From contig CBDAUF010000001.1 of NCBI GenBank assembly GCA_965200535.1, positions 1,162,102 to 1,226,101 on the forward strand: DNA of 64,000 bases. Direction: 5' to 3'. Numbering within the stretch: the stretch's first letter is position 1; every line of letters starts with the position of its first letter. A program made the translations under genes and the position numbers. This stretch comes from Alphaproteobacteria bacterium. Its GTDB lineage: Bacteria > Pseudomonadota > Alphaproteobacteria > MPNO01. This document shows positions 188 through 16,448 of this stretch, piece after piece. The notes beneath the pieces were generated by a model. It did not search any database. It had not been told where the DNA came from and saw nothing but the letters and a program-made list of their open reading frames with translations.

Positions 188-1195
188 CTAACCCCCGGTA
201 TTGCCGAGAGACTTGAGCGCATTGATCGCCGACAGGAAGGCCGGGCCGGCGACCAGCAGCATCGTCCCGGGCATCACGAGGAGCAGCATCGGCAGGGTCA
301 TCAGCACCGGCAGCCGCTCCGCCTGCGCCTGGATCCGCGCCGCCTTCTGGACCCGCGCATCCGCGGCGATGTTCCTCATCGACTGCGACAGCGGCGTACC
401 GTAGCGGTCGGCCTGGATGAGGGACATGGCGAAGTCGCGCATCCCGTCGATCTCGGTCCGCCGGTAGTATTCGCCGAGCACGGCGCGCCGGTCGGAGCCG
501 AGCCTGAGTTCCGCCTCGATCTGCCGGAACTCCCGCGCCACCCCGGGTTCGATCTGCGACAGCCCCTCGGCCACCGTCGTCATCGCGCGCTCCACGGTGA
601 GGCCGGATTCGAGGCACATCACCATCATATCGAGGGCGTCGGGCAGGGCCGACATCACCCGTTTGGTGCGCCGGGCGGCCAGCGCGCGGAGCACGTATTC
701 CGGCACCACCCCGCCGAGGACGAGACCGCCCAGCCCGCCGAGCGTGACGACGAAGAGATTCCCGCCCAGCAGCCCCGAGCCGTAGATCCCGAACACCGCG
801 CCGAGGCCGAGGGCGACCGCGCAGCCGAGCTTGCAGGAGAGGAACACCGACAGCGCCTCGGGCCGGGCGAACCCGCTCTTGCGCAGCAGCCGGGAGAGCT
901 TCTCGCGTTCCCCGGCGCCGACCGGGACCAGCATCGAGCCCGCCCGCAGCAGGGCGAGGACGAACCGCCGCACCAGGTCGCCGCCCGACCGGCGGGCGCT
1001 CCGTTGCGGGCCGCCGACCGGGACGCCTTCCTCGCGCAGCGCGCCGAGCCGCCGGTCGAGCGCCCGCGCGCGGCGCGTCTCGCGGAACAGCAGGGGCACC
1101 ATCAGCAGGACGAACAGGACGCCCGCCGCGATGCTCACGGCCGGCAGCCGGGATTCCGGCATCGGCGTCGCTCTCCTACTTCTCGACGGTTGCAC
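188..1195 (-). CDS. tadC: Flp pilus assembly inner-membrane protein TadC (T2SS-F domain)
   Basis: 335-aa ORF with polytopic membrane character. It is the last gene of the tadZ-tadA-tadB-tadC run and overlaps tadB by 20 nt. Confidence 0.75.
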   Translation of the reverse strand: MQPSRSRRATPMPESRLPAVSIAAGVLFVLLMVPLLFRETRRARALDRRLGALREEGVPVGGPQRSARRSGGDLVRRFVLALLRAGSMLVPVGAGEREKLSRLLRKSGFARPEALSVFLSCKLGCAVALGLGAVFGIYGSGLLGGNLFVVTLGGLGGLVLGGVVPEYVLRALAARRTKRVMSALPDALDMMVMCLESGLTVERAMTTVAEGLSQIEPGVAREFRQIEAELRLGSDRRAVLGEYYRRTEIDGMRDFAMSLIQADRYGTPLSQSMRNIAADARVQKAARIQAQAERLPVLMTLPMLLLVMPGTMLLVAGPAFLSAINALKSLGNTGG

Positions 1196-2131
1196 CCATG
1201 GCCCGCGCCGCCAGCAGGCCGGCGACGGCCAGCCCGACGCCCCAGTGCAGCAGGCTCGCCCCCTCCGGGGTGTTGAACAGGATATGGACCGAATGCGGCG
1301 AGATGAAGCTCTGCGCCGTCAGCACGACCGGCGGCAGGACGCTCAGCACCAGCAGCGTCAGGCGGGTCTGGCCGGTGGCGGCGTGCGCCTTCATCGCCGT
1401 GTTGCGCTGCTCGCGCAGCGCATCGGCGAGGTTGGCGAACGCGGCCGACACGCCGCCGCCGGCGCGCCGCTGCAACTGCAGGACCGCGGCGAATAGGGCG
1501 AACTCGGGGAGCCGCACGCGCTGCGAGACGGTCGCCAGCGCGGTGTCGGCGTCGAGGCCCGCGGTCAGCCCGTCGCTGACGCTCTTGAGCACCGGCTGGA
1601 CCGGCGGCCGCGCGTCCTCGGCGACCACCGCGATCGCCTCGATCGGCGGCACCCCGGCGCCGGAAAGCCGCACGATCTGGTCGATGATTTCGGGGAACTG
1701 GTTGCCGAACTCGGTCGCCAGCCGCTTCTGGCTCCACGAGAACGCGTACCATGCCGCCCCCGCGCCGGCGAGAGCGACGATCGGCCACGTCCACCAGCCG
1801 GTCGGGATCACCAGGAACCGCATCCCGATCCACGATCCCGCCGCCGCCGCGATCCCCAGCAGCAGCGCGCGCGGCAGCGTCCGCCCGACATCGAGCAGCG
1901 GGTAGCGGGCCTCGAGCATCCGCCGCAGCCGGCCGGCCCGCCGGCCGCCTTCGGTGCGGAAGATGTCGACCTCCTCTGCCGCCGCGCCCCCGTCGTCGCG
2001 GCCAGTGAGCGGCCCGGCCGCGCGCCGCAGCCGCCGCCGGAACCCGCTGTCGTCGCGCCGCAGCCGCAGGAACAGGAACAGTCCGAGCAGGGTGCTCGCG
2101 CCGCCCCCGATATAGATCAGCAGGGCCGTGC

Positions 2132-2135
<4 letters not shown>
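1176..2135 (-). CDS. tadB: Flp pilus assembly inner-membrane protein TadB (T2SS-F domain)
   Basis: The TadB-like C-terminal two-thirds of ORF 1176..2501. The likely start is TTG at 2135, overlapping the tadA stop (TTGA). The upstream part of that ORF lies in tadA and is an artefact. Confidence 0.7.
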
Positions 2136-3577
<1,442 letters not shown>

Positions 3578-3580
3578 CGA

Positions 3581-5602
3581 TCAGGCCTCCGCCCAGGCCG
3601 CCGGCAGGTCGGCCGGGGCCGGCGCCAGGATGCGTTCGGCAAGGGCGGCGGCCGGTTTGCGCAGCCGCCGGGGAAGCCGGCCCTGCGGCCAGCCGCGGCC
3701 GGCGAGATCCGGCACGGCGGCCTGGAACGGGACGACGATGCCGGGCGGCCTCTCGACCCCCGCCTCGGCCAGCAGCCCCGCGCCCGCGTTCCGCCGGAAC
3801 GCGCGCGTATGGTTCTGCACCAGCGCCACCGGCGCATTCGCGCCCGTCCCCATCGCCGCGAGGATGTGCGCCGCGCGCTGCGCGCCCGCCGTCGTCGGCT
3901 CGACCACCAGCACCCGCGCGTCCACCTCGGCGAGCAGCGCGAAGCAGGTTTCCGGATCGTCCATCCCGTCCACCAGCACCAATTGCGAGCGCCGCCGCAG
4001 CAGCGCCAGCAACCAGTCGAGCGCCGCCATCGGCGGCACCGGCGGCGGCTCCGGGCCGAGGCGGTAGGCGTAGACCGCGATCCGGTCCGACCGTTCGGTG
4101 CGCACCCCGTCGAGCACCTGCGGGTCGGAGAGGGTCGGCCCCGCCATGTCGAAGAGCTGGTCGAGGCCGGGCGCCGGGTCCACGTCGAGCTGGAGCGCCG
4201 CCGCGGCGACCGTCCGGCCGAGATCGAGCACCGAGACATAGCGCCCCTGTTCCGCCGCGCGCAGCGCGGTCGTGGCGGCGAGCGTGGTCGCCCCGCTGCC
4301 GCCGGTGCCGGCGAACCCGGCGACCCGCCCGCCGGCGTCGAAATCGTCGTCGTCGGCCGTGGCCCGCGCGACGGCCGCGCGCACCGCCGCCGCATCGATC
4401 GGCTTGACCAGATAGTCGCTGACCCCGGCGAGCAGGATTTCGCGCCCCGTGCGCGCCGTGTCGTAGGAGCCGACGGCGATCACCGCCGTGCCGACCTCGC
4501 AGACCTCCGCCAGCTCGTGCAGCGCACCGGCCGGATAGCCGACCCCGTCGATATCGACGATGACGAGCTGGGCCGACTGCCCCTCGCCGAGCGCCGCCAC
4601 CGCGGCGCGCAGTCCGCCCGGCCAGACCTGCGGATCCTCGCAGCCGGGCGCCTGCCCCTCGAAATAGAGCAGCCCCTCGCGCAGCGCATTCTCGGTCTCC
4701 CCGTCCGTCGCGAAGGCGAGCGCCGCCGGCGGCCCCGCGGGCGCCGGCTCGGCGGGCGCATCGGGCGGTGCGGCATCGGCGCCGGGTGCGGTGTCCGGCA
4801 GGGTGTCCGGGGCGATGCCGGGGATGGTCTCCGGCGCGGCAGCCGGGGCGCCGGCGGGACCGGGCGGCGGGTCGGGCGCGAAGTCCGATAGGAGATCGGC
4901 CGCGAGATCGGCCCCGAAATCGTCGGCCTCCGGCGCTTCCGGGCGGTCGGGCGCGCCGGGGGGAAAATCGTCGAGCCCGTCCAGCAGCGCGGCCGCGAAA
5001 TCGGCGCCGGGCGGCTCCGCGCCGGGGTCCGGCTCCGGCGCGGCGCGGTCTTCCGGGTCCCGCACGCCGGCGGCGGCGGGACCGTCGGTCGGTGAAATAT
5101 GTGAAAAGTCGGCCGGATCGTCCTCGAACCCGTCCAGGAGCGCGCTCGCGAAATCGGTGTCGGGCGGGCCTGCTTCCGGCGCCGGCTTCGACTCTGGCGC
5201 GGCGGGGGCGGCGAACGCCGCCGGGGCAGGCGCGGCGTCCGGAGCGGCGGCGGGCGCATCGTCCGGGGGGCGGGCGTCTTCGTCATCGGGCGGAAACTCC
5301 GCGAGGCCGTCGAGCAGCGCGCTCGCGAAATCCGCATCGAACGGATCCGTATCGGACGGGTCTGCTTCGGACGGGGCCGTTTCGTGCCGGGTCCGCCCGG
5401 TATCGTCGGGTGTCGGCGGTTGCGCAGGGTCCCCGGCGTCCGCCGGCGCACCCGCGTCCACCGGCGCATCGTCGACGGGTCTATCGGCGGCGGGCGGATC
5501 GTCGGCCAGCCCCGCCAGCAGGGCGCTTTCGAGGTCGGCATCGACCGGCGGCGGATCGTCCGCCCGTCGCGCGGCTGTGTGCGGGGAGGTGTCGTGTGCC
5601 AT
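3581..5602 (-). CDS. tadZ: TadZ/CpaE pilus-assembly protein (receiver-like plus MinD/ParA-like ATPase) with a ~300-aa acidic repeat-containing N-terminal extension
   Basis: The C-terminal ~370 aa carry a receiver-like fold and the deviant Walker A (AGTGGSGATT). The N-terminal extension is Asp/Pro/Ala-rich and holds 5 copies of a D-[FL]-[AE]-S-A-LL-DG-L-x-[DE]-F-PP motif. The true start within the extension is unknown. Confidence 0.75.
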   Translation of the reverse strand: MAHDTSPHTAARRADDPPPVDADLESALLAGLADDPPAADRPVDDAPVDAGAPADAGDPAQPPTPDDTGRTRHETAPSEADPSDTDPFDADFASALLDGLAEFPPDDEDARPPDDAPAAAPDAAPAPAAFAAPAAPESKPAPEAGPPDTDFASALLDGFEDDPADFSHISPTDGPAAAGVRDPEDRAAPEPDPGAEPPGADFAAALLDGLDDFPPGAPDRPEAPEADDFGADLAADLLSDFAPDPPPGPAGAPAAAPETIPGIAPDTLPDTAPGADAAPPDAPAEPAPAGPPAALAFATDGETENALREGLLYFEGQAPGCEDPQVWPGGLRAAVAALGEGQSAQLVIVDIDGVGYPAGALHELAEVCEVGTAVIAVGSYDTARTGREILLAGVSDYLVKPIDAAAVRAAVARATADDDDFDAGGRVAGFAGTGGSGATTLAATTALRAAEQGRYVSVLDLGRTVAAAALQLDVDPAPGLDQLFDMAGPTLSDPQVLDGVRTERSDRIAVYAYRLGPEPPPVPPMAALDWLLALLRRRSQLVLVDGMDDPETCFALLAEVDARVLVVEPTTAGAQRAAHILAAMGTGANAPVALVQNHTRAFRRNAGAGLLAEAGVERPPGIVVPFQAAVPDLAGRGWPQGRLPRRLRKPAAALAERILAPAPADLPAAWAEA

Positions 5603-5831
5603 CCGGCGCCTCGGCGGCGGGGAGCCCTAAATCGGTTCACCCATGCGTCGGTTCACGCAAAACGGGACGGGAGGGGCCCTGCCCCTCCCGCCCGGCGGGC
5701 GGCGGAGAGCGCGGAAAGGTCCCCGCGTCTCCCGCCGCCCCTGTGTTCCGCGGCTGTTTCTACCCTTCTTCGGGGGTCGGGATCGCGTCCTCGGACTCGG
5801 TCTGGATGCTGGTGCCAATAGCCTCAAGGGC

Positions 5832-5978
5832 CTACTTCATCTGACCGCTGAAAGCGGCGATCCCTGCCCCGGCGGCGGTGACGACCACACCGGCGAGGAT
5901 TGCGTATTCGAGGGCGGAGACGCCCTTGTTGCCGCGGAGGAAGGGACGGACGCGCCGCCATACATGCTCGATCTTCAT
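5832..5978 (-). CDS. flp: Flp/Fap-family pilin precursor (MKIEHVWRRVRPFLRGNKGVSALEYAILAGVVVTAAGAGIAAFSGQMK)
   Basis: 48 aa with the G/xxxEY prepilin motif (KGVSALEYAIL) followed by a hydrophobic helix. This is the C-terminal part of ORF 5832..6431. The printed sequence has a 1-nt discrepancy in this stretch. Confidence 0.8.
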   Translation of the reverse strand: MKIEHVWRRVRPFLRGNKGVSALEYAILAGVVVTAAGAGIAAFSGQMK

Positions 5979-6298
5979 CTCAGAGGTCCTTTCCTGGGTT
6001 GGAGAGAGAAGGGTGGTGAAGGAAGGGGTCGCGGCCCGCCCGGCGGGCGGACGCGGTGGATACGCACGCACGAAAAATTCGGCAGCGACGGGGAAATTGC
6101 GCGATTTTTCCGGCGGAACCGGAAATTTCGCACTGCGCGGATCGGGACAGGATCGCCATCGCCTCTTCGCACTCCCCGCCGTCGGGTTCTGAAAGCTCTC
6201 GTTGCCAACGCAACTGTTGCCGGTGCAATGGATGCGTTCGCAACTGCTTTCGCAACGCTGCGACAAGACATCGAATCCGGGAGCGATGCACTTTGGCA

Positions 6299-6589
6299 GG
6301 GTGTCGCACCCCCGCCCGGCGGCGGGTTCCGGGGGCGGAATCGCCGCCCGCGGCGGGGCGCGCGCCCGCCGCCGCGCCGGCCCGCCCGGCCGCACCGCAA
6401 CCCGCCGCCGCAACCCGCACCGTCTCATCACGCCATTGATTTACAACGGTTTTTCAGACCGCCTTCGGTGCCGCACGGGGCTTCGCGAGGGTCCGCGCGC
6501 CGGGCGCAAGCGTCCGCACTGCGTCACGGCGTCGCACCCCCCGGCCGGTGCCCCGGCGGGCGCGCTGCGTCACGGAGTCGCACCCCCGG
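6299..6589. promoter_or_regulatory. three copies of GTCGCACCCCCGG, two of them within near-identical ~25-nt direct repeats (CTGCGTCACGGCGTCGCACCCCCGG / CTGCGTCACGGAGTCGCACCCCCGG), in the 620-bp region upstream of flp
   Basis: Direct reading shows copies at about 6305-6317, 6526-6545 and 6572-6589. They lie between the TadE-like gene and flp, on the flp promoter side. Confidence 0.3.
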
Positions 6590-6600
6590 AGGGGCCGGAG

Positions 6601-7299
6601 TCAGGGGGTGGGCTGGCGGACCGGCGCCGCCGGCTGGCGGCGGAAGTCGCGGACGGGCAGGATGTGGACCCGGTAGAGATCGCCGGCGATCAGCCGGTTG
6701 GAGAGCATCCCCTCGCGCAGCGGGCGCGAGCAGACCTCGACGATGACCGCCGTCTCGCCCTCGCCCAGGCTGTCGCTCGCCTGCGGGCCGAGCAGCCGCG
6801 TCTTCCAGCCGTCGGCGGCGCCGGCGGTGCACTTGGCGGCGAGCTCGTCGGTGGCCTCCTTGGCGCCGATCCGGATCGTGTCGTCGGTCCACAGCGGCGC
6901 CGTCGGGTTGCCGCCCTGCGGCTGGTGGACGGCGGAGACGGCGATGACCGCCGCCGCCGGGGCGGCGAAGTCGTGGCGGTGCAGGAACTTGCCGAGCGCC
7001 TCCATCCCGTCGCCGTCGGGATCGGTCTCGAACGAGACGTACTCCGCCACCGCGACGGCGCTGCGCGCGCTGGCGGTGTCCACCCGGAGCAGCGAATAGA
7101 GGTCGAAGCAGACCGCCGACACCGCCAGCAGGCAGACCGCCCCGAGGGCCATCTCGAGGGTGGCGGCGGCGCGGGTCCCGCACACGAGCCGGCGCAGCGA
7201 ACGCCGCAGCCGGACGGTGCGCAGCAGGGCGGGCGGCCTGCGGAAGGGCGGAAACGGCAGCGCGGGCAGAGCGGGCATCTCAGCCGTCCGGCGTTTCAT
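6601..7299 (-). CDS. TadE/TadF/TadG-family pseudopilin-like protein
   Basis: N-terminal TadE-like segment RRLVCGTRAAATLEMALGAVCLLAVS. The start is uncertain, with ATG candidates at 7299 and 7278; the ORF extends to 7353. Confidence 0.55.
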   Translation of the reverse strand: MKRRTAEMPALPALPFPPFRRPPALLRTVRLRRSLRRLVCGTRAAATLEMALGAVCLLAVSAVCFDLYSLLRVDTASARSAVAVAEYVSFETDPDGDGMEALGKFLHRHDFAAPAAAVIAVSAVHQPQGGNPTAPLWTDDTIRIGAKEATDELAAKCTAGAADGWKTRLLGPQASDSLGEGETAVIVEVCSRPLREGMLSNRLIAGDLYRVHILPVRDFRRQPAAPVRQPTP

Positions 7300-7381
7300 G
7301 GCGCGCCACCGCGACCGCGACATTCTGCCCGGCCTCGTCCCCGCCGCCGGCAAGCTGGCCGAACTCCCACGGCTCGGGGGT

Positions 7382-7810
7382 CTAGGCGAGGCGGACCAGG
7401 ATCATCTCGCCGCCCCCGCCGGCGCCCGAGCCGGTCCCCGCGCCCGTCCCCGCCGCGTCGAGCAGGGCGGAAGGCGCGAGGCCGGTCTCCACGGTCAGCG
7501 TCCAGCGGTTGGCGCAGTCGAAGTCGTCGGCGAGGTCGAGTTCGCGGCGGATCGCGGCGCAGGCGGCCTGCGCGCCGTCCGCCGCCGCGTCCGGGGTCAG
7601 CGCCACGGCGCGCGCCGCCGCCCACGCCGCACGCCCCATCATGTCGCCGACATAGCTCGCGCGCACGATCTCCGCCAGACCGGCGAAGGCGATGACGAGA
7701 ACGGAGATGGCCAGCGCCGCCTCGAGGGTGACCGCCCCCCGCCGCGATCCGGCGAAGGGGAGAAGCGAGGCGGCCGCAGCCGCCCGGCCACGGGCGAAAA
7801 TCCGGTTCAC
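7382..7810 (-). CDS. TadE-like pseudopilin protein
   Basis: SRRGAVTLEAALAISVLVIAFAGLAEIV TadE-like N-terminus. The likely start is GTG at 7810 with GGAGG placed 5 nt upstream; the track ORF extends to 7915. Confidence 0.6.
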   Translation of the reverse strand: MNRIFARGRAAAAASLLPFAGSRRGAVTLEAALAISVLVIAFAGLAEIVRASYVGDMMGRAAWAAARAVALTPDAAADGAQAACAAIRRELDLADDFDCANRWTLTVETGLAPSALLDAAGTGAGTGSGAGGGGEMILVRLA

Positions 7811-7970
7811 GCGACCTCCGTTTGCCGCTGCGGAGTGCAGCCCGTCTACGCGCTCCGGCGGAAGCGAGTCAAGCGCGCGGCGGCCGGGAACCGGCGGTGC
7901 GGGGTTTTGTCGCACCGGCGGCAGGTCCGGCCGCTTGCCTTGGCCGCGTGTGCCGGTCGCTCGCCCGCGG

Positions 7971-9140
7971 TCACTCGCCGCGGTCGCTGCCGACCAGCGC
8001 GACCGCCCGCTGCATGGCCTTGCGGTAGGCGCGGCCCGGCCGGCCGGCGGCGCCGCCGGTGGCGCCCGCGTGCAGCGCCCGCTCGAACGGGATCACCGCA
8101 CCCGGGCGGCGGTCGGCGAGGGCGTAGCGGATATGCGCCGGCGACAGGGTGTAGCGGCGCATCCGGGTCGAGCACTGGACCAGCAGCGCCGGGGAGTCCG
8201 CCCCGAGCCGGGCCAGCAGGCGCACCGCGGTCGAGATGCTGGGCAGGGTGGGTTCGTAGACCAGCACCCTGCCGTCGGCCTGGCGCATGACCGCGAGCTG
8301 GGTCTCGGGGTCGGGCATCCCGGTCGCCAGCACGACATGGGTGCGGTTGGCCAGATACTTGAACAGCGCCGCCAGCACCGGCGCGGTGCGCGGCTTTTCC
8401 AGCCCGGCGGCCGGCGGGTGCGCGACCAGCGAGATGCCGGGGGCGGCGGGCGTCGTCAGGCCGCCGATCCGGTCGGGGTCGATCTCGAGTTCCGCATCGC
8501 CCTCGCCCTCCCCCTCGGCAATGGCGGCAGCGGCGGCGGCGGGCGTCCCCAGCAGGGCCGGCAGCCCGCCCACCGGCTCGGCCCCGAGCAGCGGCGGCAG
8601 CCGGCCCGAGACGGGGTCGAGATCGACCACCGAGGCGGTGCGGCCGTCCGCCGCGATGCCGCGCGCGACCGCGGCGACCAGGGTGGAGGTGCCGCTGCCG
8701 GGGCTGCCGGCGAAGGCGATCACCTTGCCGGCGTAGAGATGCTCGGGCGCATCGTCGGCGACCGCCGCCGCGGCCTCGCGCACCGCCGCCGCGGTCACCG
8801 GCTTGACCAGATAGTCGGCGATGCCGCACTGCATCAGCGTCCGGCCGAACTGCGCGGTGTCGGTCGAGCCGAGGGCGACCAGCGCGGTGTCGAACGCGCA
8901 GACACCGGTGAGCTGCCGGGCCGCCTCGCCGGGCTCGGCCGCGCCGTCGAGATCGACGAACACCAGCTTCGCCGGCGGCTCCGCGGCCAGCGTCCTGACC
9001 GCGGCCGCCAGGCGTCCGCGCTGTATCCGCGCATCGCGGCCGGCGAGCCCGGCGCGCAGCGCTCGCTCGGTCGCCGCGTCGGCCGCGAAGCCGCGCGCCC
9101 ACGGGCGCTTCGAGGGGCTGCGCCTGGGCGAGGTCGCCAT
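7971..9140 (-). CDS. second CpaE/TadZ-family protein (receiver-like plus MinD-like ATPase)
   Basis: Deviant Walker A (AGSPGSGTSTL), receiver-like segment KLVFVDLD...YLVKP. The ATG at 9140 (MATSPRR...) was chosen; the ORF upstream to 9572 is Arg/Gly-rich junk. Confidence 0.75.
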   Translation of the reverse strand: MATSPRRSPSKRPWARGFAADAATERALRAGLAGRDARIQRGRLAAAVRTLAAEPPAKLVFVDLDGAAEPGEAARQLTGVCAFDTALVALGSTDTAQFGRTLMQCGIADYLVKPVTAAAVREAAAAVADDAPEHLYAGKVIAFAGSPGSGTSTLVAAVARGIAADGRTASVVDLDPVSGRLPPLLGAEPVGGLPALLGTPAAAAAAIAEGEGEGDAELEIDPDRIGGLTTPAAPGISLVAHPPAAGLEKPRTAPVLAALFKYLANRTHVVLATGMPDPETQLAVMRQADGRVLVYEPTLPSISTAVRLLARLGADSPALLVQCSTRMRRYTLSPAHIRYALADRRPGAVIPFERALHAGATGGAAGRPGRAYRKAMQRAVALVGSDRGE

Positions 9141-9175
9141 CGTCGGTCGGCCCGGCCGCGCGGCGGCGGCGCGGC

Positions 9176-9532
9176 CTAGCCGTCGCCGGCGGCGCCGGCC
9201 GCGGTGGCCGACGCCTTGGGCAGGGTGCGCACCTTGTCCTCGGTCCAGCGCCGGTAGGCGTTGGCGATGCCGCCGTCGGCCGCGGTGACGGGCGGGGGGC
9301 GGCCGGCGCACACCCGGTCGGCCGCCGCGGCGCCGGCGCAGGCGAGCTTCTCCTGCTGCACCGCGCGGCCGTGCCGCACCGCGTCCAGCGCCTCCGCATG
9401 GTGGGCCCGGGCGGCGGCGCTGCCCGGCGCGAAATAGGCATCCTGCAGGGCGAGCGGCAGATAGCACCCGCCGGCCAGCGGCAGCGGCGCCAGCACCGCT
9501 AGAACGCGGAGACCGCGGCACAGAAACCGCAT
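9176..9532 (-). CDS. small lipoprotein, CpaD-like by position (signal peptide LAVLAPLPLAGGC)
   Basis: ATG at 9532, lipobox LAGGC, 118 aa. It is the first gene of the minus-strand tad run. The family assignment rests on position only. Confidence 0.4.
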   Translation of the reverse strand: MRFLCRGLRVLAVLAPLPLAGGCYLPLALQDAYFAPGSAAARAHHAEALDAVRHGRAVQQEKLACAGAAAADRVCAGRPPPVTAADGGIANAYRRWTEDKVRTLPKASATAAGAAGDG

Positions 9533-9814
9533 TTCGGGCACAGCCTCTCCCCACCGATGCAAAGGGCGGCACGCAGGATAACCGACGAGCCCGCCGCCTG
9601 CGAGAGGGGGATTTCGGGGGCGCTCTTTGCCGCCTGCGCCCCCGCGGTCCCGGTCAGGGATGGGGTGCCCAACGAATGGATCGACTGCGTGGCGCAGTCC
9701 GCGGCCGGGCACGCCTTGCGCGACGCCGACGCGGCGGACCGGACGGCGGCCGCGGCCACCGGGATGGTCGGGCGGAGGATCGGGTAGCGGGAACCGGCGG
9801 CGGGGTCGGGAGGA

Positions 9815-10138
9815 TCACCTGCCGCGGTCCGGGGCCGGAACCGCGGGCACGGCGCCGGCGGGGAGGACCAGCGCCGGGAACTTTTGCCAGATCACGTTCG
9901 GCGGCACCGGTCCCTCGGTTCCCTCCGCCGTCATGACCGGGGCCACCTCCACCTCACCCGCATCCTCGAACCGCTTGCGGATGTCGGCGACCTGTCTGGA
10001 GAGATCGGAAAACCCGGTTTCGAGAGTCCCGATGTCTGCGGCGAGAAGGGTGACACGCTCGTCGAGCATGGAGAAGGCGAAGGCGGTGACCAGGCTCGGA
10101 ACCACGGTCGGAACGAGGATGCGCGCCCATTCCTTCAT
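9815..10138 (-). CDS. small membrane-anchored coiled-coil protein (MKEWARILVPTVVPSLVTAFAFSML... then DLSRQVADIRKRFED)
   Basis: Lower-GC gene. Its ATG at 10138 overlaps the stop of the upstream 34-aa ORF (ATGA). It is related to the second half of the 80-aa protein at 10453..10695. Confidence 0.45.
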   Translation of the reverse strand: MKEWARILVPTVVPSLVTAFAFSMLDERVTLLAADIGTLETGFSDLSRQVADIRKRFEDAGEVEVAPVMTAEGTEGPVPPNVIWQKFPALVLPAGAVPAVPAPDRGR

Positions 10139-10239
10139 ATCCGTTCTCTCCACCCGACCGGTTCCACGTGCTCCTTCGCGGCCTCGTTCACGATCCCGGC
10201 GATACCGTTCTCCAGCGCCCGAACGATGGCTTCCGCCAT
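10135..10239 (-). CDS. 34-aa peptide MAEAIVRALENGIAGIVNEAAKEHVEPVGWRERI, a paralog of the N-terminus of the 10453..10695 gene
   Basis: Hand translation. About 43 nt of near-identical DNA is shared with 10633-10676. It is translationally coupled to the downstream gene. Confidence 0.35.
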   Translation of the reverse strand: MAEAIVRALENGIAGIVNEAAKEHVEPVGWRERI

Positions 10240-10452
10240 CGCGCGAAGCCTTTAGCCGGCGTAGCCGGCGTTTATCGTCCAGCCGCGACGCGGTCCTGCG
10301 AGCCGCCGCCGGCGGTTCCGGTCAGGGATCGGGTCCCCTTTGAAACGGCGCTCGAACCCGTGCCCTGCGACGGTCCCGGCGCCCTCGAGGGGTTGCCCGT
10401 TCGGGGGCCGTCGTCCGGACGGGCGGTCCTGCACGACCGGCGGACCGTGCGT

Positions 10453-10695
10453 TCAGACCGATTTGTCCGGCCAGTCGCCGGTGCCCCTGGCATAGGCGAT
10501 CTCGCCCCGGATCTCCGCTATATCCGACTTCAGGTCGGCGATGTCCTGTTTGGTCGCCATGTTGGCGGCTATGGAGTGCCGCAGCGCCTCCACCGACGCC
10601 TTGACCGGTTCTATGTTCTTCTTGACGATCTCGGTGATGCCGTTCTCCAGCGCCCGAACGATGGCTTCCGCCATCGCGTCATCCTTGGCCGACAT
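10453..10695 (-). CDS. 80-aa coiled-coil protein, DUF1640-like (…MATKQDIADLKSDIAEIRGEI…)
   Basis: Lower-GC ORF. It has an N-terminal MAEAIVRALENGI segment and the ATK-DIA-L heptad segment reminiscent of DUF1640 proteins such as 53916..54383. Confidence 0.5.
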   Translation of the reverse strand: MSAKDDAMAEAIVRALENGITEIVKKNIEPVKASVEALRHSIAANMATKQDIADLKSDIAEIRGEIAYARGTGDWPDKSV

Positions 10696-10983
10696 TTCCT
10701 ACGCTCCGGTTGACGAGCCGACTATCGGTTCGCCCCATATACTGCATCGGGATGATCCTGTCAATCACTCAACCGGGGATAGCGGTGCGCACGAAGACCC
10801 GCATGAAGCGGGAAACGGGCCCCTCGCCGAACCGGGGGGACGGGCAGGGCTTCGGTGCGGGAGATAACGGATCGCAGGGTGGACTTGGCATAGCTCTCTC
10901 ATGCCGGCATTCGCAGGGCCGGCTAATCTGGTACTGAAAAATACTCGATAATCCGGCGTTCGACCGCGCCAACGGGCGGCCGT

Positions 10984-12129
10984 ATGCTGCGGGCGCGGCC
11001 CGGCGCGTCAGGCGCCCGCCTCTCCCCGCCGCCGGCGCAGCGAGGACACCGGTTGACGCTCGAGAACGTCGAGGCCATCGCGCCCAATCTGAAACGCCGG
11101 CTGTCGGGCATCACCGCGACGGTGGTGCGCCTGCTGCCGGTGCAGGCGCGGTCGATCGGCATCGCCGCGACCGGGCCGGGGCTGCCGCCGCAGGTGCCGC
11201 AGGTGCCGCTCCGCTCCGTGCTGCTGATGCCGGGGCGGAAACGCCGGGTGTGGCATGCGCGGCGCAACAACGAGATGCTGCTCGGGCTGGTCCTGCGCCA
11301 CGTGCTGGGCAAGCGCCTGAAGCTCGTGTTCACCTCGGCATCGCGGCCCGAGCACAATCATTCCCGATACAAGCGCTGGCTGCTCTCGCGCATGGATGCG
11401 GTGGTCGCGACCTCGGACGGCACCGCATCCTACATCGGCGCAATCTCCCGCTTGCGGCAGCCCCCGCAGGTGATACCGCACGGCATCGATACCGGGGCCT
11501 TTTGCGCGCCCGCCGACCGCCGCGAGCAGCGGCGCGCGCTGGGCCTGCCCGAGGGCGTGACCGTCGGCTGTTTCGGGCGCATCCGCCGCCACAAGGGCAC
11601 GGATGTGTTCGTCGATGCGATGCTCGACGTGCTGGCGCGCCGCGCCGATGCGGTCGCCCTGGTCATGGGCCGCGCAACCGGGAAGCACCAAGCCTATCTC
11701 CGGGCGCAGCGCGCCAAGGTTGCTGAGGCGGGGCTGGAGGGCCGCATCCTGTTCCTGCCCGAGGCGCCGGTGGACGACATGCCGCGCTGGTACCGGGCGC
11801 TCGACCTGTTCGTCGCCCCGCAGCGCTGGGAGGGGTTCGGCCTCACCCCGCTGGAGGCCATGGCCTGCGGCGTCCCGGTGGTGGCGACGACGGCGGGCGC
11901 GTTCGAGGAACTGGTGGTCGATGGCGGGACCGGCCGCCTGGTGCCGCCCGGCGACGCCCGGCGGATGAGCGCGGCGGTGGGCGAGGCGCTCGATGCCCCC
12001 GGCACCCTCGCCCGGTGGTCGGCGGCGGCCCGCCGCCATGTCGAGCAGGGCTTCCGGATCGAGGACGAGGCGGCGGCGCTGAACGCGCTTTACCGCAAGT
12101 TGCTGGACGGTGATGACGGGGGTGGTTGA
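10984..12129 (+). CDS. GT4-family glycosyltransferase
   Basis: EGFGLTPLEAMACGVPVVAT motif and a Rossmann-like GT-B C-terminal half. The start may instead be TTG at about 11053. Confidence 0.8.
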   Translation: MLRARPGASGARLSPPPAQRGHRLTLENVEAIAPNLKRRLSGITATVVRLLPVQARSIGIAATGPGLPPQVPQVPLRSVLLMPGRKRRVWHARRNNEMLLGLVLRHVLGKRLKLVFTSASRPEHNHSRYKRWLLSRMDAVVATSDGTASYIGAISRLRQPPQVIPHGIDTGAFCAPADRREQRRALGLPEGVTVGCFGRIRRHKGTDVFVDAMLDVLARRADAVALVMGRATGKHQAYLRAQRAKVAEAGLEGRILFLPEAPVDDMPRWYRALDLFVAPQRWEGFGLTPLEAMACGVPVVATTAGAFEELVVDGGTGRLVPPGDARRMSAAVGEALDAPGTLARWSAAARRHVEQGFRIEDEAAALNALYRKLLDGDDGGG

Positions 12130-12376
12130 GCTGGCCGATAATGGCGGGAAACCGTCGCCGCAGTACCCGAGTCGCTGCGCACATTGATTGGAAAGCCCGG
12201 CCCCGTGGAGAAAGCGCGTATCGAGGAGTTTCTTTCTATAGCGAACCCCGACTGGGGTCCGACCGGCGACCGTTTTCCCGAGCACCGCCCGATCGCCCAT
12301 ATTCGCGATCCGGCGGGACAGTTGGTATGATATATCGAGTTGCGTTTACTTCAGCAAAAGCGATCCGGTCGGACGA

Positions 12377-12784
12377 TTGATCGCGTCCTGGGCGGCATTC
12401 TGTCGCGACCATCGCAATGTCTGGGATCAGCTTCTCCTGACCCTGGCGTGGTTTCGCGTGGCAAAACACATGCCAATCGCCAGCCTTTGGCTGAATGAGG
12501 GAATTTTTCGGTTTCCCCGACCGAGAATACGCGACTGGCGCGACCGTGTCTTCTATTACCCATACAAGCGTAAAATTCGACCGTTCATCGATCAGAAACA
12601 AGCCTCGCGCTCGCTAAAATCGTTCATAAATGCATCCGGGAACAGCGCCGGAATGCAAGGGGAAGAACTGGGCTCAGAAAACGTTTCTTCGGGCTTCCGC
12701 AATGCATTGAAACGCTGTGATTTCAGTTTCGATGCGCGAATTGAGACCATTCTACCCCCCCCCCCCCGCGGGGGACAGCGATAG
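12377..12784 (+). CDS. hypothetical protein (low-GC island); its 3' end contains the poly-C tract (…ILPPPPRGGQR)
   Basis: ORF-track entry only, with no recognisable family. It ends in TAG-TAG immediately before the next ATG. Confidence 0.25.
   Translation: MIASWAAFCRDHRNVWDQLLLTLAWFRVAKHMPIASLWLNEGIFRFPRPRIRDWRDRVFYYPYKRKIRPFIDQKQASRSLKSFINASGNSAGMQGEELGSENVSSGFRNALKRCDFSFDARIETILPPPPRGGQR
12755..12767. repeat. homopolymeric C13 tract followed by GCGGGGG
   Basis: Counted directly in the sequence. It lies 21 nt upstream of the ATG at 12788 and inside the last codons of ORF 12377..12784. Confidence 0.9.
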
Positions 12785-12787
12785 TAG

Positions 12788-13546
12788 ATGACAGCCAGGC
12801 GAAAATCGCGCCTGGAGCGCCTTCTGTCCTTGAACTGGCACCGCAAGCGCTGGGGTGCTTCGAAGCATGTCGCCGCCGGCGGGAGAGGCGACCTCTCCGC
12901 CATGAAGACGGATATCGTCGAGGCGGGAACGCCGATACAGACACGCGGTTCCGAGAAGTCGCTCGATCTCCACCTCGCCAATCTCCGGGACGAGTTCTCG
13001 GGACAACCGGAATTGATTTGGTACCATGCCAAGCTGATCGTCCTGATCAGACGCGAGTTCCGCACATCGGAAAACTATTCACAATTTCGGTTGCTTTGGG
13101 ATGCCGAACACACTTTTCTGTGCGAGAATCTGAACATCCGATGGCTGGTTTCGGCAGCGGACACCATTGCTGATCATGACCGGGATCCCGAGATACGCGC
13201 GGCGGCGATGATGGCGACCCTTCTCGTCAACACCATCAAGATGCAGGAAAGCGAGCGCTACGTGTGCGATGCGTCGAGCTTGCCGCCCGATCCTGCTCGC
13301 ATCACCCGTCTCGGGAACGAATTGGTGCCGCTCTTTTCCGGGATGTCCTCTTTCTCGGTAGGCACCGACGATACGCTCAGGAACATGTACTGGCGGCTTG
13401 AGCCGTTCTTCGGGGCCGGACCGGGGGGAAAAATCCTGAAGACAGTCTGGTCCCGGCTCCAGGTCGAAGACACGGTTTTCGCCCGAATGCGCAAACTGCA
13501 CCGCCGCAACCGTACGCGCTGGTGGGACGATACCGATCAGCGCTGA
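12788..13546 (+). CDS. hypothetical protein (252 aa, low-GC island)
   Basis: Longest ORF in the region, preceded by GGGGGA 12 nt upstream. No recognisable family. It is convergent with the GT25 gene. Confidence 0.4.
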   Translation: MTARRKSRLERLLSLNWHRKRWGASKHVAAGGRGDLSAMKTDIVEAGTPIQTRGSEKSLDLHLANLRDEFSGQPELIWYHAKLIVLIRREFRTSENYSQFRLLWDAEHTFLCENLNIRWLVSAADTIADHDRDPEIRAAAMMATLLVNTIKMQESERYVCDASSLPPDPARITRLGNELVPLFSGMSSFSVGTDDTLRNMYWRLEPFFGAGPGGKILKTVWSRLQVEDTVFARMRKLHRRNRTRWWDDTDQR

Positions 13547-14328
13547 CCGCCGATGAAATGGCTGCGGTCGAGGCGGATTTGACGGCGTCGGGCATGATGC
13601 GCATGGCACAGCACCCGGACCGCGATCCCCATCTCGATCCCTATGCGACGCAGCCGGAAACCGGGGGTCCACCGTCTTACTCGCTTCTCGCGGTCGGCAC
13701 CGATAGTCGAGGGAGCCCGGATCGGCGCTGCCAGACCGTACCTGGCGGCGCGGTCGAGTTGTACCGCACAGGCCGGTTCGATCTGGAAGCTGCGCAGTTC
13801 GTACGCCAGACTGATTACAGCATCGGCAGGCCCGGCCCTGCGCGACGCGTTCTCCAGAAGCATCCTCGCCCCGGACGGCCATAACAGATAGGCAACCGCG
13901 CCGCTGCGGTCCTGGAAGAGCCTGTGAAGCCGATGTTCCGGCGTGAGGTGCCGGCCCGCGCGTGCAACGGTCTTGCGCTGCTGCCGAACTTCGAGCGTCA
14001 GGCGATCGATCTCCGCAAGTTGTCCGGCTGCCGCCAGAACGCCGGGTGTATGCGCTGACAGGATGGCGTCGTCCTCGAGGATGAGAACCGGCATTTCCAT
14101 CTCGGCGACCCGGTTCCAGGCGGCGATATGGCTGAGGAGACAGGCGCGTTCGGCGTCCCCCAGCGGCCTTGCCCAACTGTTCCAGTAGCTGTCGCTTCGC
14201 GCCGTCGAGGCGTCGCCGGACTCGACGGCCTCGAGTCTCTCGAATTTCAGCCCGAGCCTGTCGAGCTGCTCGCTCATGAATTTCATGCGCTCCGTTTCGG
14301 CGGCGAGATTGATTACCAGACAATGCAT
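13537..14328 (-). CDS. GT25-family glycosyltransferase (LPS/LOS core galactosyl-transferase-like)
   Basis: MHCLVINLAAETERMKFMSEQL N-terminus typical of GT25. The ATG at 14328 was chosen; the upstream MDRIRTNCEDRP segment is a translated copy of the 44-bp repeat. Confidence 0.75.
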   Translation of the reverse strand: MHCLVINLAAETERMKFMSEQLDRLGLKFERLEAVESGDASTARSDSYWNSWARPLGDAERACLLSHIAAWNRVAEMEMPVLILEDDAILSAHTPGVLAAAGQLAEIDRLTLEVRQQRKTVARAGRHLTPEHRLHRLFQDRSGAVAYLLWPSGARMLLENASRRAGPADAVISLAYELRSFQIEPACAVQLDRAARYGLAAPIRAPSTIGADREKRVRRWTPGFRLRRIGIEMGIAVRVLCHAHHARRRQIRLDRSHFIGGQR

Positions 14329-14448
14329 GCCAGTCTTTGACAACGGTATCGGGGCGTGGTGCGGGGTCAGGAACGGCGCTCTCGCTTCCACGGACGGGTA
14401 AGGCCCGACCGGGATTCCTTGAGCGCCGAATCTCCGGTCTCGACTACC

Positions 14449-14492
14449 GGGCCGATCCTCGCAGTTCGTCCGGATGCGGTCCACCGCCGGCG
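14449..14492. repeat. 44-bp direct repeat, copy 1 (GGGCCGATCCTCGCAGTTCGTCCGGATGCGGTCCACCGCCGGCG), 121-164 nt upstream of the GT25 start
   Basis: 42 of 44 positions are identical to copy 2 at 16405..16448. Confidence 0.8.
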
Positions 14493-14548
14493 TGGCGAGC
14501 CCGTACCGCGCGGGACGTCGAGAAGCGCTTCTCGAAGCCGCGGCTGCC

Positions 14549-15151
14549 TTACCCCGCCGCTCCCGAGACCCGGAGCAGTCGGCTCACATCCCGCCACAGC
14601 TTGTCGAAGGAGGGCGCCGCCGCGCGCGCCGCGTCCATATCGAAGCGGGCGGTAAACGAAGCCTGGTGGAGTGTTTCGCGATAGGTCTTGCCCGGCCGCA
14701 TCCGCGCGGCCAGCCAGCCTTTCGCATTCGCGATCGCCTCGGGGTTGCCCGGCGGCGCGACGGCGGGATCGGCGTCCCGCCATTCGATCAGCGACGCGGC
14801 CGCCGCGATAAACCAAGCCTCGTATTCCATCTTCGCCAGCACCGCGCAGACGGTCCGGTCCGGTCTGGCGTCGCGGGCGCGCTGCAGGAGTTCCGGCGCG
14901 AGCCTCGCCGGGCAATCGCCGTTGGCGTCGAACAGGAGCAGGATACAGCCGTTCGCTGCCGCCCTTCCGGCGGCGAGGTCGATGGTGCGTTCGAGTTCGC
15001 CGCCTCGCAGGATGCGGTTGCGGCTCACCCGGATCGGCCTCGGGATGTCGAGCGCGATATCGGGCGACACCTGTGCGGCGATCCGGCGCAGCAGCACCGG
15101 AACCGCCCGGACCTCGCCATGCCCCTCGACGACGGTCGCTATTCGATGCAC
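14549..15151 (-). CDS. DUF4276-like protein (possible Toprim-like partner of the upstream ATPase)
   Basis: GTG at 15151 overlaps the ATPase 3' end by 13 nt. N-terminal VHRIATVVEGHGEVRAVPVLLRRI and C-terminal MEYEAWF motifs as recalled for DUF4276. The remaining 5' part of ORF 14549..16090 is artefact. Confidence 0.6.
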   Translation of the reverse strand: MHRIATVVEGHGEVRAVPVLLRRIAAQVSPDIALDIPRPIRVSRNRILRGGELERTIDLAAGRAAANGCILLLFDANGDCPARLAPELLQRARDARPDRTVCAVLAKMEYEAWFIAAAASLIEWRDADPAVAPPGNPEAIANAKGWLAARMRPGKTYRETLHQASFTARFDMDAARAAAPSFDKLWRDVSRLLRVSGAAG

Positions 15152-16362
15152 GCGCCGGGACCCGGGCCGAACAGATCGATGCGGCGCGGCGCCGGCCTCG
15201 AAGCCTCGGGATCCGGCTCGATCTGGTCCATCCTGAGCAGTTCGCCCGCGGTGTACAGGCGCTTCTTCAGGGCCGCACGGCCGACCTCGTCGAGCGGGCC
15301 GATACGGCTCTCGCCGTGCTCCAGCGCGACGGCAATAATCGATTCCGCAGGAATATCCTCGTCGTCGAGCAGGTCGGGGCTGTGGCTGGTCACCAGGATC
15401 TGCGCGTTGTCCGCGGCATCCCTGAGGCTGTCGATCAGGACGCCGAAGGCGGCGGGGTGAAGGGCGATCTCCGGCTCCTCGATACCGACGAGCCGCCGCG
15501 CCGCCCCGGCGGTTCCGGCACCCTGAAAGACCGCGGTCAGCACGCCGAGCGCGCGCAGGGTGCCATCCGACATGTTGGCGGCGAGAAAGCGCCACGGATG
15601 CTGCGCACCGCGAACCTCCTGGCGAAACTCCAGGGTCTCGCGCGGTCCCACCGGGCGCCGGTCGACGCCGTCGATGCCCGGCGCGACCTCGCCCAGATAG
15701 TCCTCGATTCTCCGCTTGAAATCGGGTGCGCGCGCGGCGAGGCCGGAGAGGACGCTCGCCAGATTGCTCCCGTCGCGTTTCAGCAGCGTTCCCGGATCCG
15801 GCGGCTGGAGGTCGCGGATGGCTTCCGGGTTGAGATTGTAAACCCCCGTCGACGACAGCGCCTCGTAGACCGGGCGGAAGGCATCGATCCCGGAGACCGC
15901 GACCAGATACAGGCGGTCGGCGGCGGCGAGCGGGGCCGGCGAGACGGTGATCCGGCGAACCCGGCCCTTCTCCACCCTGAAATAGTGCGAACCCGATCCG
16001 TCCCGCGCAATCGACAGGCACTCCTCGCTGCGCACCGCGTATCCACGGTCGGGCATGGAGCCGACCGTGAAGGCGTAGTGTCCGCGCCACGCCTCCAAGC
16101 CGAATTCGACGCGAATCCCGAAATGGTTGGGATGGCCGCCCGAGCGCCGGCGCACCTCGCCGATGCCGCCGCGGTCGCGCAGCGCGTGGTCGATCGAGAA
16201 GCGGAGCGCATCGGCGACGAAGTGGAGGGCGTCGAGAAAATTGCTCTTCCCCGATCCGTTCGGCCCGACGAGGAAGGAGACCTGCGCCGGCGAAATGTCG
16301 CAGGCGCCGATGCTCTTGTAGTTTCTGAGCCTTATCCGCGTCAGTAGTCGGCGGTCAGGCAT
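15139..16362 (-). CDS. AAA_21/AAA_15-type ABC ATPase (OLD/AbiLi/AriA-like)
   Basis: Walker A GPNGSGKSN, Walker B IGIEEPE, TSHSP. ATG at 16362 with GGAGG upstream. The first 26 codons of the track ORF are a translated repeat copy. Confidence 0.8.
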   Translation of the reverse strand: MPDRRLLTRIRLRNYKSIGACDISPAQVSFLVGPNGSGKSNFLDALHFVADALRFSIDHALRDRGGIGEVRRRSGGHPNHFGIRVEFGLEAWRGHYAFTVGSMPDRGYAVRSEECLSIARDGSGSHYFRVEKGRVRRITVSPAPLAAADRLYLVAVSGIDAFRPVYEALSSTGVYNLNPEAIRDLQPPDPGTLLKRDGSNLASVLSGLAARAPDFKRRIEDYLGEVAPGIDGVDRRPVGPRETLEFRQEVRGAQHPWRFLAANMSDGTLRALGVLTAVFQGAGTAGAARRLVGIEEPEIALHPAAFGVLIDSLRDAADNAQILVTSHSPDLLDDEDIPAESIIAVALEHGESRIGPLDEVGRAALKKRLYTAGELLRMDQIEPDPEASRPAPRRIDLFGPGPGACIE

Positions 16363-16404
16363 CTCCAGCCCTCCAGTCGGTCGGTGCGCCGGCGCCGGGA
16401 CGGC

Positions 16405-16448
16405 GGGCCGATCCTCGCAGTTCGTTCGGGTGCGGTCCACCGCCGGCG
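16405..16448. repeat. 44-bp direct repeat, copy 2, 43-86 nt upstream of the ATPase start
   Basis: See copy 1 at 14449..14492. Confidence 0.8.

Follow-up and report, generated by a model that had tools for sequence, protein, structure and literature searches.

A TadZ/CpaE-type protein with a long acidic N-terminal extension and repeated copies of a family-private motif in an alphaproteobacterial flp-cpaF locus

To our knowledge, no core component of the Tad pilus is less well understood than TadZ/CpaE, and the positioning and the cytoplasmic regulation of this machine are only now being resolved. The signature basic residue of ParA/MinD proteins is central to their nucleotide-dependent dimerisation, and some of the polar platforms on which ParA/MinD ATPases assemble (i.e. 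HubP/FimV and PopZ) possess long acidic low-complexity regions with repeats or short binding helices; PopZ, for its part, combines a Pro/Glu/Asp-rich linker with a short N-terminal binding helix. As regards the Tad machine itself, cryo-tomography of Caulobacter led to a model in which the CpaF hexamer is encircled by a ring of six CpaE dimers, whose receiver (REC) domains are proposed to mediate the dimer-dimer contacts (PMC13170226). The Walker-A-like motif of TadZ follows the consensus K/RGGxGxS/T, and in Bdellovibrio a TadZ-TadA fusion is recruited by RomR, a protein built from a receiver and a Pro-rich acidic disordered region (bioRxiv 10.64898/2026.07.08.737194). Here, we describe a TadZ/CpaE-type protein (hereafter Z1) encoded in a 64,000-nucleotide (nt) stretch of an Alphaproteobacteria assembly (GCA_965200535.1, contig CBDAUF010000001.1, positions 1,162,102 to 1,226,101; this whole stretch is called the window), in which the folded domains are preceded by an acidic extension of about 290 amino acids (aa) that harbors repeated copies of a short, sharply conserved motif. 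The gene and the parts of its product are located as follows (coordinates are those of the window):

3581..5602, minus strand: Z1, a CpaE/TadZ-like open reading frame (ORF) of 673 aa, described from its translation, 345 homologs, an AlphaFold2 (AF2) model and fold matches
4727..5602, minus strand: N-terminal extension of Z1 (aa 1-292), recognized by its composition and by an AF2 predicted local distance difference test (pLDDT) <50 outside the helices
4352..4726, minus strand: atypical receiver domain of the CpaE type (aa 293-417), from profile and Foldseek matches, pLDDT 75-97
3614..4333, minus strand: ParA/MinD-fold domain (aa 424-663), from Foldseek matches
4283..4309, minus strand: degenerate P-loop GTGGSGATT (aa 432-440), with Thr instead of the K/R of the TadZ signature
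5609..5612, minus strand: Shine-Dalgarno-like GAGG, 6 nt before the ATG at 5602, read directly from the sequence

Z1 is a TadZ/CpaE-type protein by architecture and gene context, since it joins a receiver fold to a ParA/MinD fold and is placed between flp and cpaF (gene order flp-Z1-cpaF-tadB-tadC on one strand, with Z1 directly upstream of cpaF, the position typical of TadZ). The identity given to it in the original prediction is thereby borne out: the Z1 family profile matched Sinorhizobium meliloti CpaE2 (4myr, E 5e-11) and Caulobacter crescentus CpaE (4n0p, E 7e-11), the Z1 receiver was superposed by Foldseek on 4n0p and 4myr (template modelling score normalized to the target, TM, 0.73-0.83; 31-32% identity), the C-terminal domain on ParA (3ea0), Soj, MinD and FlhG (target TM 0.67-0.75), and the whole two-domain core could be aligned to Eubacterium rectale TadZ (3fkq). 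The AF2 model, run with an alignment of 32 sequences, showed residues 290-663 to be well folded, and the beginning of the receiver, previously estimated at about residue 300, was measured at residue 293 (by profile and by AF2); the interval that had originally drawn attention (4480..5602) comprises the extension together with the greater part of the receiver-like domain. The receiver domain contains an invariant GVSDYLVKP stretch, in which the Tyr and Lys-Pro equivalents are kept.

The nucleotide-binding part of the core departs from the described type. The P-loop of the close Z1 clade reads G[TCSV]GGSG[AST]TT (glycine and threonine positions being invariant in the alignment) and does not fit the Walker-A-like signature K/RGGxGxS/T, which is fitted by the GARGGVGAT retained in homologs of about 30% identity (Geminicoccaceae, Phenylobacterium, Tistlia and others). 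Furthermore, no Pfam family matched Z1 at E <= 0.01 (TadZ_N included), and the best NCBIfam score (CpaE_hom_Actino, 29.3 bits, the cut-off being 154) remained, like all others, below the curated cut-offs. Because the K/R of the signature has been lost throughout the clade, we consider that these sequences suggest a scaffold or pseudo-ATPase. Z1 had originally been presented as a TadZ ATPase: the TadZ/CpaE type stands, whereas the ATPase designation has to be weakened for an atypical member of a clade that lacks the Walker-A-like K/R and falls below the curated cut-offs.

The extension is acidic and rich in Pro and Ala, and is predicted by AF2 to be disordered with the exception of five short helices. 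Its composition (residues 1-296: A 25%, P 21%, D 18%, E 5%, K+R ~3%; net charge -57) agrees with the earlier statement that it does not resemble the Arg/Gly-rich junk translated from spurious frames. The open frame of Z1 begins past an in-frame stop at ~5627, within it the ATG at 5602 (with the GAGG ahead of it) is the earliest start codon, and the same 673-aa product was called by an independent gene caller. The only further in-frame starts ahead of the folded part are GTG48 and GTG180; from residue 180 to the start of the domain there is no ATG, GTG or TTG, and the latest alternative (GTG180) would still yield a product with two motif copies and an extension of 110 aa. As the leader MTLxxSxxxxxxPAExP is common to the majority of homologs, and as a motif copy is located near residue 27 in many of them (residue 23 in Z1), the ATG at 5602 is very probably the true start and the extension very probably translated, in accordance with the claim that it lies in frame with the receiver domain.

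That the extension could be an annotation artefact (i.e. a true start near the receiver domain, preceded by untranslated high-GC sequence) appears extremely improbable to us. It would draw on the GC content at the third codon position (GC3), which amounts to 0.93 in the folded part but just 0.82 in the extension, on the fact that long spurious ORFs arise in high-GC genomes, and on the short N-termini of a few relatives. On the other hand, motif and leader are preserved at the protein level in ~100 homologs of only 48-63% identity, the spacings of the underlying DNA repeat keep the frame (see below), no start codon is available between residue 180 and the domain, and a terminator-like hairpin lies close upstream of the ATG. 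The full codon-position values (positions 1/2/3: 0.86/0.63/0.82 for the extension, 0.82/0.54/0.93 for the folded part) are such that the lower GC3 fits an Ala/Pro/Asp-rich coding sequence. The other frames overlapping the extension (4480..5640, minus strand; 4768..5844 and 4791..5630, both plus strand) are Arg- or Ser/Gly-rich and were rejected as shadow ORFs; the first of them, which is Arg-rich, has in addition a first-position GC below that of the second position, which is atypical of coding sequence. The hairpin is the following:

5665..5693, minus strand: terminator-like GC hairpin and T-run, found by consensus scan (13 pairs, 11 of them G-C, then CGTTTT)

It is situated between flp and Z1, ~60 nt upstream of the Z1 start region, and the fold of the flp-Z1 intergenic RNA (5603..5831) reached z = -2.9. 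A second GC-rich hairpin was observed in the same intergenic region, an arrangement that may amount to an attenuator governing how much pilin is made relative to the machinery.

Within the extension, the motif is present in four clear copies and a degenerate one, the clear ones following the pattern D-[FL]-x-x-A-L-L-x-G-[LF] (bit scores are from a profile built on the motif instances of the homologs alone, the window sequence being excluded):

5492..5545, minus strand: motif copy 1 (aa 20-37, VDADLESALLAGLADDPP), 26.4 bits, AF2 helix 22-31
5288..5341, minus strand: motif copy 2 (aa 88-105, FDADFASALLDGLAEFPP), 19.6 bits, AF2 helix 90-99, within DNA repeat family D1
5111..5164, minus strand: motif copy 3 (aa 147-164, PDTDFASALLDGFEDDPA), 15.6 bits, AF2 helix 150-157, within D1
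4958..5011, minus strand: motif copy 4 (aa 198-215, PGADFAAALLDGLDDFPP), 13.1 bits, AF2 helix 202-208, reference copy of D1
4865..4918, minus strand: degenerate motif copy 5 (aa 229-246, FGADLAADLLSDFAPDPP), negative with the profile, AF2 helix 231-239

When the Z1 N-terminus was shuffled with its composition preserved, none of 2000 sequences reached >=10 bits with the motif profile. Of the five copies originally proposed, four are therefore solid and the fifth (core DLAADLLSDF) goes undetected by the profile, although AF2 places a helix on it; the accompanying description of every copy as ending in D-F-P-P has to be abandoned, given that just two of the five end in DFPP or EFPP. With their endings DDPP, EFPP and DFPP, the copies in Z1 represent a Pro-rich version of the tail typical of the family (S-D-x-P-x-x-S-S-[DE]-[DE]). 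At the DNA level, an 81-nt unit is present four times at 60-74% identity and with spacings of 153, 177 and 204 nt, all of them divisible by three, and a short repeat (D2) connects copy 5 with copies 3 and 4. As to the disorder and motif predictions proposed at the outset, the AF2 model has five short helices, one per motif (pLDDT 52-65), and the remainder of the extension stays below 50; disorder and helix propensity are here predicted properties of the extension.

The protein search recovered 345 homologs of Z1, and the motif statistics were taken from the best 120. Motif-searching in homologous TadZ proteins, as had been proposed with the original prediction, showed at least one copy in 102 of these 120 (0-7 copies per protein), upstream of the receiver domain in 97 of the 120, so that an extension conserved among relatives is a property of the family, and the refuting case named with that prediction (orthologs devoid of a conserved extension) does not apply. 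The consensus of the homologs is IDADFESALLEGLSDAPSASS (peptide form GIDADFESALLEGLSDAPSVSSED), or, written as the family pattern, IDADFESALLEGLSDxPxxSS[DE][DE]. Positions F/L5, A8, L9, L10, G12 and L13 are sharply conserved, and in the 277 unique motif instances L9 is kept in 97%, L13 in 94%, G12 in 88%, E6 in 76% and D4 in 71%, while the flanking and linker positions stay below ~35% and the linkers cannot be aligned. By this pattern of conservation the motif is under selection, and the linkers are not.

The motif is private to the Z1 family. An exhaustive hmmsearch of its 33-column profile against 1.84 billion representative proteins (E <= 0.001) gave 16 matches, of which 14 were Z1 family members or N-terminal fragments of them, and the other two were giant extracellular repeat proteins with a similar string inside a folded repeat. 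In the six-frame translations of the window and of 79 related loci the motif was confined to the Z1 ORF. Furthermore, the profile found no match at E <= 10 among the chain sequences of the PDB (in a library that excludes chains <20 aa), whereas the absence of matches in a phmmer search with the N-terminal 292 aa against 5.8 billion proteins is uninformative, the candidates of its word index being swamped by low-complexity proteins.

The copy number of the motif evolves rapidly. The extension ranges from ~5 to ~1300 aa across related loci, and two homologs contain perfect tandem units with one motif copy in each: a 73-aa unit repeated six times in P0121 (700 aa) and a 52-aa unit repeated three times in P0008 (768 aa). 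Such units indicate a very recent expansion of the repeats, or possibly a collapse or expansion during assembly. At the upper end of the range are four giant-tail homologs:

6245..11293 of locus L012: giant-tail homolog
1561..6132 of locus L019: giant-tail homolog
6851..11155 of locus L020: giant-tail homolog
6398..11134 of locus L028: giant-tail homolog

The extensions of these four are in frame, about 1000-1300 aa long and strongly charged (net -150 to -180). A diverged form of the motif (xLDxALLRxIAExPSVSSDS) is present in them in 3-7 copies, and the P-loop of these proteins reads GCGGSG.

Given such variability, the extension could be regarded as a passive acidic spacer (or entropic brush) that acts by charge and bulk, with the motif as a by-product of repeat expansion. 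It might in that case exclude nucleoid and ribosomes, space the machines, or block the non-specific binding of the ParA-like domain to DNA or membrane. The extreme and conserved negative charge (in 106 homologs: median length 256 aa, -0.18 per residue, almost no Lys/Arg), the range of lengths and the recent perfect duplications speak for this alternative. Nevertheless, L9, G12 and L13 are nearly invariant over diverged instances whose linkers are unalignable, a copy near residue 27 is retained in many homologs, and the distances between the last copy and the receiver fall into clusters (~63, 76 and 127-135 aa). These three features argue for sequence-specific selection beyond bulk charge, and we consequently hold the passive spacer to be unlikely, albeit still deserving of attention; were it true, the finding would be of local interest only.

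The sharp conservation of the motif, the free linkers, the variable copy number and the restriction to one family lead us to view the array as one of short linear motifs that would fold on binding. On the assumption that this view is accurate, Z1 would be a scaffold-type member of the TadZ/CpaE lineage with a translated, acidic and disordered N-terminal tether, whose motifs (core D-[FL]-E-x-A-L-L-[ED]-G-L, with Leu9, Gly12 and Leu13 nearly invariant) dock in a multivalent manner to a hydrophobic groove of a partner and thereby organize or regulate the machine. By analogy with Caulobacter, Z1 would be placed on the cytoplasmic side, at the foot of the Tad-like machine made from flp-Z1-cpaF-tadB-tadC, each machine would display about a dozen acidic arms of ~290 aa with ~50-60 helix-forming motifs in total, and these motifs might serve as low-affinity docking helices that together cluster, position or regulate it. 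We favor this reading tentatively, at slightly less than an even chance; a docking function as such, and the candidate partners (CpaF, the ParA-like domain, the receiver-like domain of Z1 or of its paralog Z2, or a polarity factor encoded elsewhere), are speculative.

Several observations weigh against this docking interpretation, and they leave the earlier suggestion of a role in polar targeting or partner binding without backing from AF2 docking or from covariation with neighboring genes. Neither AF2 nor the covariation tests found a partner for the motif: full-length Z1 gave no confident docking (helix pLDDT 52-65), and in a construct of motifs 4-5 with the receiver the motif-4 helix rose to a pLDDT of ~71, with the five models disagreeing. 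Covariation with Z2 was rejected, as motif-bearing Z1 genes occur without Z2 within 10 kb (L003, L007), and the giant-tail loci, too, are devoid of Z2. Covariation with the basic N-terminal region of CpaF was likewise rejected, as every close locus shows a charge of +6 to +7 there irrespective of the Z1 tail, and neither the charge nor the length of the region follows the presence of the motif. Among the columns of the folded domains, only an uninformative change of E366 to A separates motif-bearing from tail-less members, and the motif profile scored ~0 bits on known docking peptides. Moreover, 12 of the 120 best homologs are devoid of the motif, their receiver domain being preceded by <=70 aa, and several Gammaproteobacteria-labelled loci are almost without extension; the existence of such nearly tail-less close relatives implies that the tail is dispensable for the core function.

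In a more specific variant, the alpha4-beta5-alpha5 face of a receiver (that of the same Z1, of a neighboring Z1 or of Z2) would be the docking site of the motif helices; such binding, comparable to that of FliM to CheY, would cross-link or auto-regulate the TadZ ring. The receiver-like domain keeps the Tyr and Lys-Pro equivalents in its invariant GVSDYLVKP, REC domains have been proposed for the inter-dimer contacts of CpaE (PMC13170226), FliM_N is a disordered peptide that folds upon binding a receiver (PMC6700473, PMC9126983) and shares by eye the A-L-L-x-G core with our motif, and the pLDDT of the motif-4 helix increased slightly when it was modelled with the receiver domain alone. AF2, however, gave no confident docking, no receiver-domain column splits motif-bearing from motif-less members, and with the FliM_N, FliY_N and CheZ_C peptides the profile yielded scores near 0 bits (-1.6 to +1.0), by which homology to CheY-docking peptides was rejected. 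On balance, we regard receiver docking as improbable. A further candidate, the ParA-stimulating peptide of the ParB type, was discarded, as motif and flanks are acidic and have no conserved basic residue; on the N-termini of ParB and Spo0J the profile scored ~-1 bit.

Membrane targeting by amphipathic helices, akin to the C-terminal membrane-targeting sequence of MinD or CpaE, was also considered. The short predicted helices do display a hydrophobic stripe (F, L, L, L), and an amphipathic helix has been proposed for the association of CpaE with the inner membrane (PMC13170226); yet both the helices and the sequences flanking them are strongly acidic and devoid of basic residues, which disfavors the binding of anionic membranes, and their hydrophobic moment is low (0.12-0.48). 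We would give this explanation very little credit.

A bolder form of the multivalent docking we prefer, which we consider doubtful, is that a TadZ-like pseudo-ATPase has become, by virtue of its tail, a self-contained hub that organizes the pole or the machine, in replacement of landmarks of the PodJ, HubP or RomR type. About twelve subunits with 4-5 docking helices each on acidic tethers might then build a multivalent, perhaps condensate-like network, which would bind neighboring Z1/Z2 receiver-like domains or capture a clade-specific client. Such a hub would serve a Tad-like system that has no nearby secretin and has apparently spread among uncultured bacteria labelled as Alphaproteobacteria, Gammaproteobacteria and Acidobacteria.

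The genes surrounding Z1 in the window are the following:

9176..9532, minus strand: lipoprotein gene
7971..9140, minus strand: Z2, a CpaE-like paralog of 389 aa without the extension, P-loop GSPGSGTST
7382..7810, minus strand: TadE-like gene
6601..7323, minus strand: TadE-like gene
5832..5978, minus strand: flp-type pilin of 48 aa with G/VSALEYAILAG, from a weak PF04964 match and the motif read directly
2132..3577, minus strand: cpaF/tadA motor ATPase (PF00437, E 9e-62), beginning 4 nt past the Z1 stop
1176..2135, minus strand: tadB
188..1162, minus strand: tadC

Z2 shares 37% identity with the folded domains of Z1 (over 351 aa, E 9e-47), has a degenerate P-loop of its own that differs from that of Z1, and occupies a syntenic position in about 12 related loci; the order of the cluster is kept in ~30 loci from metagenome-assembled genomes (MAGs). 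No secretin, CpaB/RcpC, TadD or prepilin peptidase was found near the cluster or among the scanned large ORFs of the window. The close Z1 family is almost restricted to uncultured MAGs (bins named, for instance, RHO1-3_bin, jk18x and p16x, as well as long-read assemblies with UUID names), with labels that comprise Defluviicoccus, Thalassobaculaceae, Rhodospirillales, Alphaproteobacteria, some Gammaproteobacteria and Ectothiorhodospiraceae, and one Acidobacteria. This spread of lineage labels suggests horizontal transfer within one habitat, possibly a host-associated one (e.g. sponges); the latter is an impression gained from isolate names, which a literature search on related MAGs did not confirm. 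Several MAGs contain two whole clusters, each with its own Z1-type gene (L003 and L014, both on contig CBDDOM010000002.1; L011 and L021; L009 and L016).

The N-terminus of CpaF (3370..3577, minus strand) begins with a conserved MPARAFGRRxR, after which comes a stretch of ~55-70 aa that is basic (+6 to +7), rich in Pro and Ala, and probably disordered; this arrangement is present in all CpaF proteins of the close family, the distant homologs having MFGRR and a charge of ~+2. After tadC in locus L001 lies a di-haem cytochrome c peroxidase gene (PF03150; 10063..11004 of that locus), which recurs in nearly all close loci with 67-82% identity, the Gammaproteobacteria-labelled MAGs included. Farther along the window the GC content dips to ~57% at 12.5-13.5 kb (the first 12 kb being for the most part at 70-78%), and by this dip are found a GT4 glycosyltransferase gene with a 'GT4-conflict' Pfam match (10984..12129, plus strand) and an AAA_21/AAA_15 ATPase gene (15139..16440, minus strand); the region 10984..16440 may be a foreign or defence-related insertion.

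As to the wider meaning of the extension, we consider the Z1 tail to be a clean case of a bacterial array of short linear motifs in which copy number is altered by tandem duplication. A clade that lacks the nucleotide-signature residue and possesses a rapidly evolving, disordered multivalent arm suggests that the machine may be organized on a scaffold basis, instead of by nucleotide-dependent dimerisation. Moreover, a motif so short, sharply defined and private to one family offers an easy experimental handle.

In comparison to described TadZ/CpaE proteins (3fkq, 4n0p and 4myr), Z1 has the same atypical receiver and ParA/MinD core, and its gene is likewise upstream of cpaF/tadA. It differs from them in several respects: canonical distant TadZ/CpaE proteins have ~10-20 aa ahead of the receiver, whereas Z1 has an acidic extension of ~290 aa with repeated motifs; the K/RGGxGxS/T signature is present in the former, whereas in Z1 the K/R is missing and the curated Pfam and NCBIfam cut-offs are unreached; and the Z1 cluster, unlike TadZ/CpaE loci, includes the tail-less paralog Z2. 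The module that the extension adds to the TadZ core is undescribed for TadZ in the literature searched, full-text searches on disorder or on the N-terminal region of TadZ/CpaE having returned nothing comparable. RomR, which belongs to a polarity module responsible for positioning a Tad machine, resembles Z1 in that a receiver is combined with Pro-rich or acidic disorder, but its disordered part is C-terminal, the protein is separate from TadZ and no motif is held in common. The N-terminal CheY-binding peptide of FliM (LSQxEIDALL) contains A-L-L-x-G and, as is predicted of the Z1 motif, is disordered and turns helical, and it is displayed, as proposed for the Z1 arms, in many copies on the cytoplasmic face of an envelope-spanning machine; each FliM subunit has a single such peptide, as against the 4-5 tandem motifs of Z1, for which receiver binding is proposed by analogy. 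In function Z1 would resemble the acidic repeat hubs HubP/FimV and PopZ, but it shares no sequence similarity with them and has neither LysM nor transmembrane anchor: what sets it apart from these platforms is that its acidic repeats are fused to the ParA/MinD-like protein itself, and not carried by a separate landmark.

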